From contig CAKVNM010000001.1 of NCBI GenBank assembly GCA_934777505.1, positions 28,977 to 92,976 on the forward strand: a stretch of 64,000 nucleotides of DNA. Reading direction: 5' to 3'. A program made the translations under genes and the position numbers. Positions 48,559 through 54,055 of this stretch are shown here, piece after piece (position 1 is the stretch's first letter; each line of letters opens with the position of its first letter). Below the pieces are notes generated by a model. That model was not told where the DNA came from and ran no database searches. It saw only the letters and a program-made list of their open reading frames with translations. Source of the stretch: an uncultured Clostridia bacterium. Its GTDB lineage: Bacteria > Bacillota > Clostridia > Christensenellales > UBA1242.

Positions 48559-48652
48559 TTTGTCGAAACTTTAACTTTATTTAAAACAAGCGGTTAAAAA
48601 TTGTTGCAAAAATATTCGCATTAATGATAAAATTAACCCAAGGAGAAAAATT

Positions 48653-49114
48653 ATGTCAATGTTATTAGAAAACACATCAAATCCAGGATTTTTTGAAAAA
48701 TATGGTTTGCTTATTATTTTAGTTGTTATGATTATCGCAATGTTTGTTTTCAACTTTTTGCGTCAAAAAAAATATCAACAACAAGAAGCAAAAATGCTTG
48801 AAGATATCAAAGTTGGAACAAAAGTTAAAACTTATGCAGGCGTTTATGGAACAATCGTTGGAATGTACGACTCAACAGACGGCAAAGTTGCTATTTTGTC
48901 ACTAGACGGCAAAGCAACTATGGAAGTTGATTTTAGGTCTATCTATGTTATCGACAACAAAACAGAAGTAACTGCTGAAAAGACAGAAGAAAACGCAGAA
49001 GAAGTCAAGGCAGAACCAGTTGCAGATGCAAACAAAGAACCTAAACAAGAAGACTCAAAACCAGCAGAAGAGCCAAAAGCAAAGAAAGCCAAAAAAGAAA
49101 AAAATCAAGATTAA
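48653..49114 (+). CDS. yajC: Preprotein translocase subunit YajC with a long charged C-terminal tail
   Basis: TM, then KKYQQQEAKMLEDIKVGTKVKTYAGVYGTIVG YajC core; about 50-aa K/E/A/P tail. Confidence 0.85.
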   Translation: MSMLLENTSNPGFFEKYGLLIILVVMIIAMFVFNFLRQKKYQQQEAKMLEDIKVGTKVKTYAGVYGTIVGMYDSTDGKVAILSLDGKATMEVDFRSIYVIDNKTEVTAEKTEENAEEVKAEPVADANKEPKQEDSKPAEEPKAKKAKKEKNQD

Positions 49115-49127
49115 TAAAAAAACACTA

Positions 49128-49164
49128 CCGTTAGTCAATACTAATTGAAACTAGCGGTTTTTTT
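49128..49164 (+). terminator. Rho-independent terminator after yajC
   Basis: ccgttagt (49128-49135) / actagcgg (49150-49157), one G-U pair, 14-nt loop, 7-T run. Confidence 0.7.
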
Positions 49165-49274
49165 AATAGCATATTTGAAAGTTACAGAGAGTATATTCTT
49201 GGATATGATTGTCTTTGTAAAAATGCTTTATTTAATTAAATGATTAGTTCGTTAAATTTTTATACTAAAATTTA

Positions 49275-49303
49275 TTGACAATCAGTCAAAATTATATTAT
49301 ATT
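49275..49303 (+). promoter_or_regulatory. Sigma-A type promoter of the islet
   Basis: TTGACA (49275-49280), 17-nt spacer, TATATT (49298-49303). Confidence 0.6.
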
Positions 49304-49332
49304 ACTCTTGTAGTAAATTGGAGAGAAAGCTT

Positions 49333-49596
49333 TTGAATTATCTTGTTAACAATGAATTCTATTTTGAAGTATTTGATGATGGAGATGTGATGGCATGTGG
49401 TAAGGCTATCCCAAGGAGTTTCATACTAAATAAAACGACTTGGTATGTTATCCAATTATTTAATTGCATTACTTCATATGGAAATGCAAAGGAAAAATTT
49501 ATTAACCATTATAATAGAGATAAAATATTCCTTTCGGACGAATTTGAAAAGATTTTTAAGAATTTACTAAAAAATGAAATTATAATAGGAGTTTAA
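49333..49596 (+). CDS. PqqD-like RiPP recognition element (RRE) protein, stand-alone
   Basis: About 87 aa; SFILNKTTWYVIQLFNCITSYGNAKEKFINHY...LSDEFEKIFKNLLKNEII fits the PqqD pattern (LNetaa.i..l.dG..t..e....l...y....l..d...fl..L...g.i). The track start 49318 (TTG-GAG) lies in the SD GGAGAG; TTG 49333 has 7-nt spacing. Confidence 0.55.
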   Translation: MNYLVNNEFYFEVFDDGDVMACGKAIPRSFILNKTTWYVIQLFNCITSYGNAKEKFINHYNRDKIFLSDEFEKIFKNLLKNEIIIGV

Positions 49597-49597
49597 T

Positions 49598-49789
49598 ATG
49601 GAAAATTATGAAGAAGCTTTGCTTGAAGAAATGTCATTAGAAGAATGTAATTATTCCAATGAATGTACAGTTGTTTGTACTTATATGTATGGTTATTGTG
49701 GTGAAGCTGAAGGTTGGGGTACAATTTACTGCCCAGAATGGGGGTCACCTTCAACTAATGATTCAGATGATGACGATTCGGATGATTAG
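49598..49789 (+). CDS. Putative RiPP precursor peptide (63 aa, 5 Cys, 8 aromatic, 18 acidic, 0 basic residues)
   Basis: MENYEEALLEEMSLEECNYSNECTVVCTYMYGYCGEAEGWGTIYCPEWGSPSTNDSDDDDSDD; ideal SD AGGAG 6 nt upstream inside the end of the RRE gene; 1 nt after the RRE stop; directly upstream of the rSAM gene. Confidence 0.65.
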   Translation: MENYEEALLEEMSLEECNYSNECTVVCTYMYGYCGEAEGWGTIYCPEWGSPSTNDSDDDDSDD

Positions 49790-49816
49790 AAGTTGTTTAT
49801 ATATGGAATGTAAGAT

Positions 49817-50875
49817 ATGAATAAATTAAAAAGTATGTATATTGAAGTGACATCAGTGTGCAACATGAACTGCCCTTATTGCTATAATAATTCAGGCTGT
49901 AAAGGTACTTATTTAGATAAGAAATATGTTTTTGATTTAATTGATCAATGTTATAAAAATAAAATTTCTGAAATAACTATTTCTGGTGGAGAACCGTTTT
50001 TACATCCTAATATAATGGATTTTATTAAATACGCAAATAATAAACAAATACATGTTAGGATTATTTCGAATTTATCAACCATTAAAACAGATACTGCTAT
50101 TGAGATATTAAAACATGGTAATTATTTTCAGTTAACATTAGACTCTACAGATGAAAAAGAAAATGATTCTATTCGAGGAAAAGGATGTTACAAAAAAATT
50201 ATTGAGTTATTAGAAAAAGCAAAAAAAGTTAATTTATCTAAAAGAATAGTTCTGAGAATGAATTTAAGTAAAAAAAATGTTAACAAAATTGACTCTTTTA
50301 TTAATTTGTCGATATTTTATGGAGTCAAACATGTTTCTATCGCATTTATTGCGAATTGTGGAAGAGGACAAGAGTATGAATATGCGTTTAGTTATCAACA
50401 TACATTATCTGAAATGATAGGCATAATGGAAAAACTTAAAGTGTTATCCATTAAATTAAAAGAAACTATAGATATATCGTATAATAATTTAGAAGAACAA
50501 AGAAGTTGTCCGCTTTTTAATTTAGGTGACATAGAAATTAATCCAAGAATTGACCCTAATGGCAATGTTTTCTTTTGTGGTTATTTTTTTGGTGAAGAGA
50601 ATTCTCTTGGTAATATCTCAAATAATAGTGTTGATGAAATTATTAATTCTAAAGATTTTCATTGTTTTAAGGAAAAAGTTCAGAAAAGAAAACAAAATAA
50701 TAAGTGTGAGGTTTGTCTTTTTAATAAAATATGTTCGTGTGGTTGCCCTGCAATATCTTTCATGAATACGAATAATATTTTTAATATTGATAATCAATGC
50801 AAAATGATTAAATATTTTATTAAAAATAATTTTAGAAAAAAAAGAGGATTGCTTAATAATAAAAATGAAAGATAA
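49817..50875 (+). CDS. Radical SAM enzyme with C-terminal SPASM domain (peptide-modifying maturase type)
   Basis: CNMNCPYC (Cx3Cx2C) at residues 15-22; GGEP SAM-binding motif; SPASM-like Cx17Gx4C ... CEVCLFNKICSCGC (Cx2Cx5Cx3C) ... C. Confidence 0.85.
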   Translation: MNKLKSMYIEVTSVCNMNCPYCYNNSGCKGTYLDKKYVFDLIDQCYKNKISEITISGGEPFLHPNIMDFIKYANNKQIHVRIISNLSTIKTDTAIEILKHGNYFQLTLDSTDEKENDSIRGKGCYKKIIELLEKAKKVNLSKRIVLRMNLSKKNVNKIDSFINLSIFYGVKHVSIAFIANCGRGQEYEYAFSYQHTLSEMIGIMEKLKVLSIKLKETIDISYNNLEEQRSCPLFNLGDIEINPRIDPNGNVFFCGYFFGEENSLGNISNNSVDEIINSKDFHCFKEKVQKRKQNNKCEVCLFNKICSCGCPAISFMNTNNIFNIDNQCKMIKYFIKNNFRKKRGLLNNKNER

Positions 50876-51452
50876 ATGGTTGATAGTTGGACTTGGGAAT
50901 CCTGGTAGAGAATATATCTCAACTAGGCACAATGCCGGATTTATAGTTGTTGATGAAATACTGAAAGACTTAAAATATAGTCATGAAATCAAGAAATTTG
51001 ATGGATTAATTTATAAAACAATAATTAATAATACGATATGTTTTTTTTTAAAACCTCAAACTTATATGAATAATAGTGGGACATGTGTTTACAATGTTGC
51101 ACATTATTATAAGATTCCTTTGGATAAAATTATTATATTGACCGATGATATAAATTTTAAAGTTGGTAAAATAAAAATAAAACAGAATGGATCAGCTGGT
51201 GGACATAAAGGAATAAATAGTATTATCGAAACATTTAAAACTAATAAGTTTACTAGAATTAAAATAGGTGTTAATGATAAACCGAGTAAATTTATTGATC
51301 TGAAAGATTGGGTTGTTAGTAACTTTTCTATGGATGAAATAAAAGATATTAAACATTGTTCTGAAGCAATTATTGATATAATACAATTAGCACTTGAAAA
51401 TAATATACAAATGGCAATGAATAAATATAATGGGACAAATGTTGTTTTGTGA
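50865..51452 (+). CDS. pth: Peptidyl-tRNA hydrolase
   Basis: LIVGLGNPGREYISTRHNAGF, YMNNSG, TDDINF, GGHKGINS; 11-nt overlap with the rSAM gene; composition matches the islet. Confidence 0.88.
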   Translation: MKDKWLIVGLGNPGREYISTRHNAGFIVVDEILKDLKYSHEIKKFDGLIYKTIINNTICFFLKPQTYMNNSGTCVYNVAHYYKIPLDKIIILTDDINFKVGKIKIKQNGSAGGHKGINSIIETFKTNKFTRIKIGVNDKPSKFIDLKDWVVSNFSMDEIKDIKHCSEAIIDIIQLALENNIQMAMNKYNGTNVVL

Positions 51453-51495
51453 ATTATAAGTGCCTTTGTCCCTGTTTTTTTATTTCGCAAATTTC

Positions 51496-51525
51496 AAAAA
51501 CACTATCAAAACGATAGTGTTTTTT
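51496..51525. terminator. Bidirectional terminator (pth / convergent membrane gene)
   Basis: Perfect 12-bp stem aaaaacactatc (51496-51507) / gatagtgttttt (51513-51524), 5-nt loop. Confidence 0.85.
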
Positions 51526-51532
51526 GTTGCTT

Positions 51533-51925
51533 TTATTTTTTAACATTCACTCCAATCACTCCGCAAATTGCACCAGTTAGTAATCCAAACACAAGGTCAA
51601 TCAAAATTGTAACATCAAACTTGAATTGTCCGTTTAAAATAGAGAACACAACAAATGCTAAAATGGTGTAGAGAAAGCCAATAACAAGACCTTTAACCAA
51701 TCCTTTTTGCTTGTCTTTTTTGGTTACAAAAAGCACTCCAATCAAAATACTAAGCACTTTTATAACTTGATTTATGGGTTTGATTAGTGTTTCGCTCATG
51801 TTTGTTAGTTTAATAAAAAAAGCAAACACAAGTATGCAAATCAAACTAACGCAAACGCTGATTAATGCCCCTTTTAAACAACTCAAAACGATATTTTTAT
51901 TCTCATTTTTTTTAACTTGTTCCAT
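51533..51925 (-). CDS. Small four-TM membrane protein (TIGR04086/YrzE-like)
   Basis: Start moved to ATG 51925 (SD AAGGAG); 130 aa; Gly-rich TM helices (GLVIGFLY, GLLTGAICGVIG). Confidence 0.6.
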   Translation of the reverse strand: MEQVKKNENKNIVLSCLKGALISVCVSLICILVFAFFIKLTNMSETLIKPINQVIKVLSILIGVLFVTKKDKQKGLVKGLVIGFLYTILAFVVFSILNGQFKFDVTILIDLVFGLLTGAICGVIGVNVKK

Positions 51926-52089
51926 TTTTTGCTCCTTATACTTTAATCTATGAACAAAAATAGCCAATTATGACTTATAAAAAATGCCAAAAATGTTAAG
52001 TATTTATTAATACTTGCTTAAAAAATTTGACTATAAAGCCTAATTAATATATACTTAATTAGAAATTTTGTTTATTAGGAGAACTAATC

Positions 52090-53421
52090 GTGAAAAAGAA
52101 AAGAGCAATACTAAATTTTGCTGGAATTATCTTTGTTTGCTTGTTGCTAGCGGTGTTATCGGTTGTTAGATTTACAATCCCTGGCACATACTACAAAGAA
52201 TATGTTGGATTTTTGAACGCTATCGAACTTGGAATTGATTACAAGGGTGGTACAACATTAGTCATCGAAGCAAAAAACAACTCAGCAGACTACACAAACT
52301 TTGCCAAGGGCGTTGAAGCACACGCACTTAGAATAAAAGGTATTTTGGCTGACAACAATTACAATAGCAATGTTTACACAACGCTAGGAACAAGTTTGGT
52401 TATGGAAATCTTTGACGAATACGACACAGATGCAATCAGTGATTTAATCAGTGCGACAAACAACAAACTTGCAATTAGAACTGAAAACAGCACAACTGGC
52501 GAAGTTTACTTGACTCAGGACGATATCGAAGACGCTTATGCAATGGAAAACGGCTATTATGGCTACACAAACACTTCAAGATATGGTGTTTATGTAAAGT
52601 TTACACAGCATGGCAAAGAACAAATCAAAACTATCACTTCGGGTGCTTCTTCAAACAGTAAAAAAACACTTTACTTCTTTATTGGAGATTCGCTATTTCA
52701 ACAACTTCCTGTAAGTGAAGAAGTCGACCAAGATTATATCTTTATTTCTGGCGGAAGCACTCTTAACACAAAAGACGGAGCAGACCAATACGCTGGAAAA
52801 CTTCTTTCAACAAAATATGACTACACTTTTGAGCAAAAATCAAAAACAGTCATTCAAGCAGATGTTGCACAAAGAAATTTGATTTTGTCACTTGTTATCA
52901 CAGCAGTTATCATTGTTGCTAGCATGATTATGCTAATCGTTAGATTTAAAAAACTTGGACTTGTAAACTGCCTAGCACTTATTGTTGGAGTACTACTTCA
53001 AATCATTATGCTTCAAGCAGTTCCAGGAATTGTTATCACAGCGCAAGCATTTATGGGTTCTGTACTCACTTATGTTCTTGGCTTTGGCATGATTTACTAT
53101 ATGCTCAGCAAAATGGCTGGCGAGTACGCACAAGGGAAGAAGGCACATTCAAGTTTCAAATTTGGTTTCTTAAAAAACTATATGCCACTTGTTGAACTTT
53201 CTGTAAGTTATCTTGTAGCAAATATTATTTTCTACATCTTTGGCTCAACCGCAGTTAAGTACTTTGCTTTTGCTTCCATTATTGGAATAGTTATTTATGG
53301 ACTATGTGCAATCTTGGTTTCAAAATTGTTTAACAAACTTTGCTTGAATATCTATCAAGAAAAAGTTAAGAATTATGGATTTACAAGGGAGGCAAATGTT
53401 CATGAACTCGAAGAAATTTAA
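52090..53421 (+). CDS. secD: Protein translocase subunit SecD
   Basis: GTG start after SD AGGAGA; N-terminal TM, periplasmic-type domain (GIDYKGGTTLVIEA), C-terminal 5-TM bundle. Confidence 0.88.
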   Translation: MKKKRAILNFAGIIFVCLLLAVLSVVRFTIPGTYYKEYVGFLNAIELGIDYKGGTTLVIEAKNNSADYTNFAKGVEAHALRIKGILADNNYNSNVYTTLGTSLVMEIFDEYDTDAISDLISATNNKLAIRTENSTTGEVYLTQDDIEDAYAMENGYYGYTNTSRYGVYVKFTQHGKEQIKTITSGASSNSKKTLYFFIGDSLFQQLPVSEEVDQDYIFISGGSTLNTKDGADQYAGKLLSTKYDYTFEQKSKTVIQADVAQRNLILSLVITAVIIVASMIMLIVRFKKLGLVNCLALIVGVLLQIIMLQAVPGIVITAQAFMGSVLTYVLGFGMIYYMLSKMAGEYAQGKKAHSSFKFGFLKNYMPLVELSVSYLVANIIFYIFGSTAVKYFAFASIIGIVIYGLCAILVSKLFNKLCLNIYQEKVKNYGFTREANVHELEEI

Positions 53422-54055
53422 TGTGTACAAAAATGCAGTATACTTTGATATTGCTAGCGGAATTTTACTAATTGCAGGACTTGTTGTTGGACTTATCTTG
53501 GGACTTAATAGTGATGTCAAGATTGCAAGCAGTTCAATTTTGAACACAACTCTTGCAGTTCTAATTTTTGAAATCATTTTGCTAATTTATGTAACAGTAA
53601 AATATGATTTCTACACAGCCTTTACAATGGTTTTGGCGGTTTTACACAATGTTATGTTAACAGTTGCACTTGTTTGCATTTTTAGAATTCCTGTTACAGA
53701 CAGTTTGACCACCGCTATTATGATTGTTACAGGACTCACAGCGGTTAACTTATTTATCCTATTCACTGGCAAGCCAGATTATAAATCAACAACCAACAGA
53801 GAATCAATGGTTAACGACTTGGTTTCTAGCAAGTTGAAAACTTTGGTTTTGCTAAATTGCACAATTTTGGTTACAGTTATTGCAATGATATTCACATTTA
53901 ACACAAACATTGTTATGCTAGTAAGACCACTTTTGATTGGAATTGTAGTAACATTTTATAGCACAGTATTTATGTGCGCACCATTCTGTGGTTACTTTAT
54001 AAAAGAGAAAAAACAAAGAAAACAAGTTGATTTAGAACAAGATTATGTTAAGTAA
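53402..54055 (+). CDS. secF: Protein translocase subunit SecF
   Basis: Six-TM SecF-type C-terminal bundle following secD; SD AAGGGAGG at 53385; the start is ambiguous among 53375, 53396 and 53402. Confidence 0.8.
   Translation: MNSKKFNVYKNAVYFDIASGILLIAGLVVGLILGLNSDVKIASSSILNTTLAVLIFEIILLIYVTVKYDFYTAFTMVLAVLHNVMLTVALVCIFRIPVTDSLTTAIMIVTGLTAVNLFILFTGKPDYKSTTNRESMVNDLVSSKLKTLVLLNCTILVTVIAMIFTFNTNIVMLVRPLLIGIVVTFYSTVFMCAPFCGYFIKEKKQRKQVDLEQDYVK

Follow-up and report, generated by a model that had tools for sequence, protein, structure and literature searches.

Why should a cassette for making a modified peptide end in a gene for peptidyl-tRNA hydrolase (Pth)? The question is raised by 64,000 nucleotides (nt) of DNA from an uncultured Clostridia bacterium (contig CAKVNM010000001.1 of assembly GCA_934777505.1, positions 28,977 to 92,976 of the forward strand). 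We refer to this whole stretch as the window. Within it, four genes totalling 2.1 kb occupy an islet of low G+C content. In order, they encode a PqqD-like protein, a precursor peptide, a radical S-adenosylmethionine (rSAM) enzyme with a SPASM domain, and a Pth. We call the last of these genes pth2. Here, we report that pth2 is a horizontally acquired second copy, of foreign origin. We also report that it is linked to one type of precursor and rSAM enzyme, and that it co-diverges with them. Less firmly, we propose that pth2 serves the cassette as an antidote.

A second Pth of foreign origin

The pth2 gene lies at positions 50865 to 51452 on the forward strand. It runs from ATG to TGA and encodes 195 amino acids (aa). 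The product matches the entire Pfam PF01195 profile (positions 1-183 of 183) with 203.5 bits (cut-off 27). It also matches TIGR00447, with 180.7 bits (cut-off 100). An earlier interpretation made from the letters alone, hereafter the sequence-only reading, had judged the catalytic motifs to be intact. Indeed, GLGNPG, TRHNAG, YMNNSG and LTDD are all found in pth2. The same reading placed the start codon 11 nt inside the rSAM gene (49817-50875), and this placement is exact. The shared 11 nt (ATGAAAGATAA, 50865-50875, forward strand) include the rSAM stop codon, TAA, at 50873-50875. In relatives, the spacing between the two genes is -8, -4, -14, -8, -8, +4 and +20 nt. The overlap in the window probably couples translation of pth2 to that of the rSAM gene. 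Consistent with the sequence-only reading, which saw neither promoter nor terminator between the two genes, we found only weak promoter-like matches there (9/12) and no terminator-like site. Promoter-like matches in the region number 33, compared with 23.8 ± 4.7 in shuffled sequences. Hence, the weak matches near the 3' end of the rSAM gene and pth2 were read as background.

Next to the host genome, pth2 is poor in G+C. A count made by hand, of 76 G+C per 300 nt from position 50881, was reproduced exactly. The whole gene has 25.5% G+C, and 16.3% at third codon positions (GC3). Values for the rSAM gene are 24.5% and 16.7%, respectively, while the genome has 35.5% G+C. The claim that pth2 shares the composition of the islet is thus borne out. 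The host genome (G000) is 1.02 Mb in size and Firmicute-like; genomes of the family are all 0.8-1.4 Mb. We ranked its 693 non-overlapping open reading frames (ORFs) of at least 150 aa by GC3. The lowest was pth2 and the second lowest was the rSAM gene. Both are about 3.4 standard deviations (sd) below the genome mean (0.343, sd 0.053).

There are two PF01195 genes in the host genome. The other, pth1, is on a different contig (G000:C3) and encodes 176 aa, with 39% G+C and 42% GC3. It is downstream of a glmU-like gene and directly upstream of mfd. This is the pth-mfd context that the sequence-only reading had named as usual for Firmicutes. That reading allowed for two possibilities for pth2: an additional copy borne by the cassette, or the sole copy in a displaced position. 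The first alternative stands. The second is ruled out by the canonical pth1 in its pth-mfd context. The two proteins are 35% identical.

Phylogeny separates the two genes. In a maximum-likelihood tree, pth1 groups with housekeeping enzymes of the genus and family (98 in the Shimodaira-Hasegawa-like approximate likelihood ratio test). Conversely, pth2 and a set of database sequences form a clade of their own (97). When pth2 was constrained to the family housekeeping clade, 107 log-likelihood units were lost, and the approximately unbiased (AU) test gave p = 0.0004. Hence, pth2 is not the only pth gene of this organism, nor does its phylogeny match the organism. We also placed all cassette-linked Pth2-type sequences in a single clade with the orphans, which have no rSAM gene beside them. 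This arrangement was not rejected by the AU test (p = 0.82), and its likelihood was the higher one. A single Pth was counted in 59 of 61 relatives, and two Pth genes in the other two. The rSAM gene occurs among these 61 only in G000.

Linkage of Pth to one precursor type

We collected homologues of the rSAM enzyme and read the contigs that carry them; most of the related loci are on short metagenomic contigs. Pth directly follows the rSAM gene in all 11 rSAM clusters with at least 45% identity and readable downstream DNA. This count includes the window's own cluster, and also two clusters (P0005/P0092 and P0006/P0094) for which the pairing of rSAM gene and Pth was deduced from their contigs being equal in length. 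The 11 clusters span about 9 distinct genomic contexts. These are marked by yajC, ftsA, tyrS, serS, glyS, rpsO, pflA, helix-turn-helix (HTH)/DUF6442 genes or a large ATP-binding cassette (ABC) exporter cluster. Every Pth-linked cassette that was read encodes a precursor whose core hardly varies, C[T/D]V[V/E]CTYMY[G/A]YC...GWGT[T/I]YCPxW. A metagenome scan with this core produced one further locus only, L131, which is of the same type as L095.

More distant relatives are different. We found no Pth within 5 kb of about 13 loci where the rSAM identity is 44% or lower (L094, L136, L012-L018, L025 and L033). These loci carry another precursor core, SATCQ...C...TCG.... Conversely, among readable cassettes of the Pth type, none without Pth was found. 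Whether homologous rSAM cassettes carry pth had been posed as a question by the sequence-only reading. All of those with the same precursor type do. Pairwise identities of the rSAM enzymes and of the Pth proteins are also correlated, across seven cassettes (Mantel r = 0.91, exact p = 1/5040). In 10 of the 10 other loci, the cassette or lone pth has a G+C content 4-10 points below that of its flanks.

These data bear on two simple accounts of pth2. First, the sequence-only reading had offered the possibility of a hitch-hiking housekeeping gene. This is disfavoured because linkage holds across about 9 contexts and because the rSAM enzyme and Pth co-diverge. Second, a spare Pth might raise fitness in AT-rich genomes of about 1 Mb, having been linked to the cassette once and then kept by inertia. 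In support, orphans occur alone and Pth is a dosage-sensitive housekeeping enzyme (PMC9973355). However, Pth2-type copies are present in only 4 of 401 family genomes. Because second copies are so rare (only 2 of 61 relatives), there appears to be no general demand for a spare Pth. Furthermore, the linkage has outlasted divergence of the rSAM enzyme to 40-45% identity and many relocations, although the surroundings changed. Sister cassettes with the other precursor never have Pth. We consider it quite improbable that pth2 is kept by inertia.

The precursors themselves suggest another possibility. Runs of Asp and Glu form tails on the precursors of the window, L003, L005, L092 and L132, and some precursors have acidic N-termini. 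Premature release of peptidyl-tRNA has been reported for runs of consecutive acidic residues (bioRxiv 10.1101/2021.02.02.429294). An acidic precursor could therefore destabilise the ribosomes that make it and release precursor-tRNA. The extra Pth would then do no more than recycle that tRNA. However, Pth occurs just as regularly beside precursors that are not acidic at the tail or at the N-terminus (L093, L095/L131, L135 and L007). It tracks the conserved precursor core, not acidity. The same preprint describes destabilisation as maximal at N-termini, and mostly cryptic once the nascent chain fills the exit tunnel (bioRxiv 10.1101/2021.02.02.429294). Acidic tails of the precursors begin after about 50 residues. 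In addition, orphan Pth genes persist as intact ORFs with no precursor. For one pair of cassette-linked and orphan genes, the ratio of nonsynonymous to synonymous substitution rates (dN/dS) is 0.21. With four Pth-linked precursor types free of an acidic tail, we have largely rejected acidic-tail destabilisation as the reason for Pth. We rate self-inflicted drop-off of this kind as distinctly unlikely.

Individual cassettes have the following surroundings. L003/L004 is flanked by an ABC-2 transporter and ftsA, and L005/L006 by tyrS and HTH genes. The flank of L092 is serS, and L093 is near glyS. For L095/L131 the flanks are rpsO, or pflA/pflB, while L135 is next to rpsO. HTH/DUF6442 genes flank L132-134, where Pth is cut by the contig end and is still recognisable. 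L007 is a larger form of the cassette. It adds a nucleotidyltransferase, an HprK-like protein, a signal-peptidase-like protein and two ABC transporters.

We made two further observations on these loci. L007:4406-13038 and L094:627-7718 both encode a PqqD-like protein, an HprK-related protein (TIGR04352, E 3.6e-5), a PF14907 nucleotidyltransferase, a signal-peptidase-like protein and two ABC transporters. These larger forms recall the 'HPr-rel-A' and SynChlorMet types of cassette. Of the two, only L007 has Pth, and its precursor is of the CTVVCTYMYGYC type. Separately, a gene for an aminoacyl-tRNA synthetase (aaRS) adjoins, or is within three genes of, the locus in L005 (tyrS), L092 (serS), L093 (glyS) and L138 (class I aaRS, PF00579). 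An aaRS gene is the immediate neighbour of cassette or orphan Pth in 2 of about 10 cases; on a rough estimate, this may be chance in gene-dense genomes of 1 Mb.

Orphan copies and a proposed role of Pth2

Pth2-type copies were found in 4 of 401 sampled family genomes. These are G000, which has the cassette, G180, G263 and G035; the copy in G035 is just below the threshold used for this sample. G035, G180 and G263 each also have a housekeeping Pth, and there is no rSAM gene beside the extra copy. The G180 orphan has 90% DNA identity to cassette locus L093, starting 51 nt upstream of pth. Hence, a stub of the rSAM 3' end remains. Comparison of the cassette-linked L093 gene with the G180 orphan gave the dN/dS of 0.21. 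A second orphan, L008, is abundant in the Hadza gut and follows a P-type ATPase gene. Its pth is 99.5% identical to the cassette-linked pth of L132, with homology from 13 nt upstream of the ATG. Pth-only orphans thus exist, and in two of them the breakpoints are 13-51 nt upstream of pth. A further orphan, P0100, is between an exonuclease gene and a methyltransferase gene. As a separate observation, an ORF of 85 aa (L124:2198-2452) lies ahead of the G263 orphan and resembles, by eye only, a HicB-type antitoxin.

Judging from its residues, Pth2 is probably still a peptidyl-tRNA hydrolase. We aligned E. coli Pth, host Pth1 and 8 cassette or orphan copies. Asn10, His20, Asn68 and Asp93 (E. coli numbering) are invariant, and positions 103, 105 and 133 have retained a basic residue, K or R. 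Lys105 and Arg133 form a basic clamp for the tRNA 5'-phosphate. Of particular note is the residue equivalent to E. coli Asn114, one of the five active-site residues usually listed, which contacts the oxyanion and the ligand. This is Lys in pth2 (GGHKG).

To place this change (N114K) in context, 39 sequences of the Pth2 clade, which was defined after seeing the data, were compared with 108 other Pth sequences. N114K is present in 37 of the 39 clade members and in 3 of the 108 housekeeping enzymes. Altogether, 11 positions separate the Pth2 clade. N114K is the sharpest, followed by Ser/Asp96 to Asn and Leu97 to Phe. Briefly, the substrate cleft of Pth is formed by gate (91-102), base (108-115) and lid (136-150) loops (PMC4226762). 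Five of the 11 clade-specific substitutions are in these loops, at positions 96, 97, 114, 146 and 150 (hypergeometric p = 0.03). In Thermus thermophilus Pth, the position equivalent to 114 is Arg103, and replacement with alanine markedly reduced kcat/Km (PMC11994314). Since Arg works at this position in that enzyme, we take N114K to be a variant, not a loss. No donor lineage was found in which a K114-type Pth is the native pth-mfd enzyme; Pth2-clade members with a readable context are all cassette-linked or orphan. Elsewhere, the sole Pth of G014 (G014:C1:110963-111508, L102/L128) belongs to the housekeeping clade and has Lys at the Asn114 position (GTHKG). This could be an independent change at the target site or plain tolerance of the substitution.

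Could Pth2 instead take part in biosynthesis? It would then release a tRNA- or ester-linked intermediate of the modified peptide, or replace a missing leader peptidase. Such a role would suit the tight coupling of pth2 to the rSAM gene, the lack of a protease in the minimal cassette and the clade-specific changes that surround the peptide-binding cleft. [quoted passage not shown] However, orphan copies survive without biosynthetic genes, and L007 has Pth in addition to its signal-peptidase-like protease. The residues that clamp the tRNA 5'-phosphate are also retained. Hence, the substrate of Pth2 still looks like tRNA, and we know of no tRNA-dependent step for rSAM/SPASM RiPPs. We conclude that a biosynthetic role is unlikely.

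We favour the interpretation that pth2 is the antidote or immunity gene of the cassette. It may provide a drug-insensitive copy of the target, or extra capacity against peptidyl-tRNA drop-off. We put the probability of this interpretation at about 55%. The sequence-only reading had already speculated about a product that provokes peptidyl-tRNA drop-off, against which Pth might protect or because of which it might be needed. Such a link is now suggested by an evolutionary pattern; Pth is never missing from the cassette and is often kept alone. No producer is without Pth, yet many Pth genes stand apart from a producer; such an asymmetry would be expected of an immunity gene.

According to our proposal, the four genes of this RiPP-type cassette would be transcribed from their own promoter. 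Translation of pth2 would be coupled to that of the rSAM gene. Hence, Pth2 would be made whenever the maturase is made. As the antidote, it would function as a peptidyl-tRNA hydrolase. Two mechanisms fit and are not separable here. In the first, the mature peptide would inhibit housekeeping Pth, and Pth2 would be an insensitive replacement. This would be self-resistance by target duplication. In the second, the peptide would provoke peptidyl-tRNA drop-off, and the extra Pth would restore the pool of free tRNA. The level of Pth is known to set how sensitive cells are to inhibitors of aaRS and to the drop-off drugs macrolides, clindamycin and puromycin (PMC9973355). Non-producers would keep or acquire Pth alone, as an orphan resistance gene.

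Several points weigh against the antidote interpretation. The minimal form, with its four genes, lacks an exporter, a protease and any further immunity gene; genes for export are present only in the distant L007. Because the minimal cassette has neither exporter nor protease, we can only infer an antimicrobial role for the peptide itself. Orphan Pth might be kept for a general benefit that is unrelated to the peptide. Second-copy status was established for the orphans of G035, G180 and G263, while L008 and P0100 were read at the locus only. Enrichment of substitutions in the cleft is modest, at p = 0.03 for a clade defined post hoc. Finally, the substitutions that mark the clade could come from the ancestry of a donor lineage and not from resistance, and N114K is also seen in the housekeeping Pth of G014.

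A bolder form of the proposal is possible, which we consider less likely than not. Here, the mature peptide would be a natural inhibitor of Pth1 or a potent inducer of drop-off. Pth2, with Lys114 and remodelled gate and lid loops, would be insensitive and would allow producers to survive, and the widespread gut orphans would be community resistance genes. If true, this would be the first known natural product acting through Pth and the first Pth to be an immunity determinant. Bacteria cannot do without Pth, and it is being explored as a target for antibiotics. A 2025 review dates the first report of a small-molecule inhibitor to as late as 2024 (PMC11906701). On the antidote proposal, the cassette would encode a natural peptide acting on Pth or peptidyl-tRNA turnover, plus a ready-made resistant enzyme. 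A translation-rescue enzyme would also be added to the known partners of RiPP maturases. Gut bacteria with genomes of about 1 Mb would exchange a 2.3-kb module of producer plus putative antidote, and keep the antidote alone.

The islet, its partner genes and related systems

The low-GC islet is about 2.37 kb long (roughly 49130-51495) and is inserted between yajC and a convergent DUF3792 gene. A repeat search and reading of the sequence identified a 12-nt direct repeat, AAAAACACTACC, at the left edge (49118-49129, forward strand). The right copy, AAAAACACTATC, starts at 51496, is identical at 11 of 12 positions and forms the 5' arm of a terminator hairpin. These repeats are suggestive of insertion into the yajC/DUF3792 intergenic terminator. 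The site is empty in congener G001, where tgt and yajC are followed by a short terminator, then by the convergent DUF3792/TIGR04086 gene and by secD. The same empty order is seen in G004 and G007, two members of the family. No mobility gene was found in the islet. A phage or plasmid vehicle was considered and rejected; the best phage match to Pth is 42.5% identical and the best plasmid match to the rSAM enzyme is 32% identical.

Predicted transcription signals bracket the four genes. On the forward strand, a hairpin with a U-run after yajC (49127-49165; folding energy -13.1 kcal/mol, z -4.1) would be a terminator that separates yajC from the cassette. A candidate promoter, TTGACA-17 nt-TATATT, follows at 49275-49303 on the same strand. 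This candidate is a match to the consensus, at 11 of 12 positions. It is the best sigma-70-type match within 48600-52100, the only strong one, and is upstream of the first cassette gene. At the other end, a forward-strand hairpin spans the pth2 stop codon and is followed by UGUUUUUUUAUUU (51432-51484; -12.9 kcal/mol, z -2.2). Together with its repeat pair, this makes a candidate terminator borne by the cassette. A predicted bidirectional terminator (51496-51524, z -4.3) is common to the cassette side and the convergent DUF3792 gene. Thus, one promoter match and the terminator hairpins enclose all four genes, with none internal between the rSAM gene and pth2.

Three neighbouring features were also noted. 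In congener G003 (L116, G003:C2), permease genes of an ABC-2 transporter, not yajC, lie upstream of the DUF3792 gene. Hence, the yajC/DUF3792 intergenic site has been rearranged in more than one lineage. We considered the ABC-2 transporter upstream of the L003 cassette as the exporter of the system. This was rejected because it is a core gene, found at C1:7490-8263 in G000; it is beside DUF3792 in G003 through rearrangement. Downstream of the islet, homologues of secD and secF (window 52090-54055) score 75 bits against a cut-off of 244, and 43 bits against a cut-off of 160, respectively. Their ORFs overlap by 47 nt. This is a divergent SecDF in a reduced genome.

The first cassette gene encodes the PqqD-like peptide-recognition protein (49318-49596, forward strand). 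Its longest ORF, of 92 aa, begins at TTG 49318. A start at TTG 49333, which gives 87 aa and comes 7 nt after GGAGAG, is more likely. PqqD-like homologues precede the precursor in all full cassettes. The family assignment is weaker than those of the other genes, and draws on family members whose scores reach or approach the Pfam PqqD cut-off (L012, 23.5 bits against 23.4; L007, E 6e-4). The best match of the PqqD-like profile in the Protein Data Bank (PDB), the RiPP recognition element TfuB1 of a lasso peptide, is marginal (E 0.076).

The second gene encodes the predicted precursor of 63 aa (49598-49789, forward strand), with core CTVVCTYMYGYCGEAEGWGTIYCPEW and an acidic tail. Across 7 cassettes, 19 columns of the precursor alignment are invariant. 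The third gene encodes the rSAM/SPASM peptide maturase (49817-50875, forward strand; 352 aa), which matches PF04055, PF13186 and PF13353. Its CxxxCxxC motif is CNMNCPYC, at residues 15-22. No NCBIfam model was reached above cut-off; the best was MftC, with 104.8 bits against 265. Profile matches in the PDB are 5wgg (1.2e-20), which we take to be CteB, SkfB (6efn) and PqqE (6c8v).

How does the cassette compare with known systems? It has the components of an rSAM/SPASM RiPP cassette: a radical SAM motif, a SPASM domain, a conserved short precursor and, more weakly, a recognition element in the PqqD-like protein. Like the PqqA/D/E and MftA/B/C modules and the thioether-forming SPASM maturases, it brings together an rSAM/SPASM enzyme and a short precursor with a PqqD-like protein that is encoded separately. 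Enzymes of the PqqE, MftC, SkfB and 5wgg type are the closest to its rSAM protein in NCBIfam and the PDB. Unlike the PqqA and MftA modules, it has a dissimilar precursor core and reaches no curated model, and the Pth partner is unique to this cassette.

In the literature that we searched, Pth is nowhere given a role in immunity or resistance, and no SPASM enzyme is described with Pth as its partner. The only related remark concerns PF01195 proteins that precede MNIO enzymes (PMC12452194). Like pth2, these 'adjamnio-II' proteins are Pth-family members that recur in a RiPP-type cluster with their role unexplained (PMC12452194). Unlike Pth2, they measure 233-256 aa and are followed by an MNIO enzyme and a TIGR04222 protein; this distinction is drawn from their description (PMC12452194). 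Their clusters also differ from the pth2 cassette, with no precursor identified and no rSAM enzyme (PMC12452194). The proposed antidote role for Pth, against the product of its own cassette, is likewise not described in the literature searched.

Pth2 resembles housekeeping Pth1 enzymes (E. coli Pth and B. subtilis SpoVC) in scoring above family cut-offs and in keeping the catalytic and tRNA-binding residues. Unlike them, it has no pth-mfd context, is only 35% identical to the host enzyme and carries N114K together with changes in the gate and lid. It is also dispensable, in the sense that close relatives lack it.

In the classical case, immunity to a bacteriocin is conferred by a small dedicated protein, of the membrane or binding type, or by an ABC pump, and orphan immunity genes are found in non-producers. 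Like such genes, pth2 is predicted to be co-transcribed and coupled, is never missing from the producer locus and is frequently kept alone in related strains. Unlike such proteins, Pth2 is a full-length enzyme of translation quality control.

Finally, self-resistance can arise from a duplicated, insensitive target encoded within a biosynthetic cluster. An example is the spare isoleucyl-tRNA synthetase MupM of the mupirocin cluster. Target-directed genome mining looks for duplication, localisation to a cluster and a signal of horizontal transfer. All three are seen in pth2, a second copy of an essential gene, placed in a cluster and with a phylogeny incongruent with that of the host. Unlike the polyketide and non-ribosomal pathways of target-duplication clusters, this is a four-gene RiPP cassette, and it is known from its genes alone. 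A cluster that always carries a divergent Pth resembles the genomic signals by which targets of other natural products were suggested.

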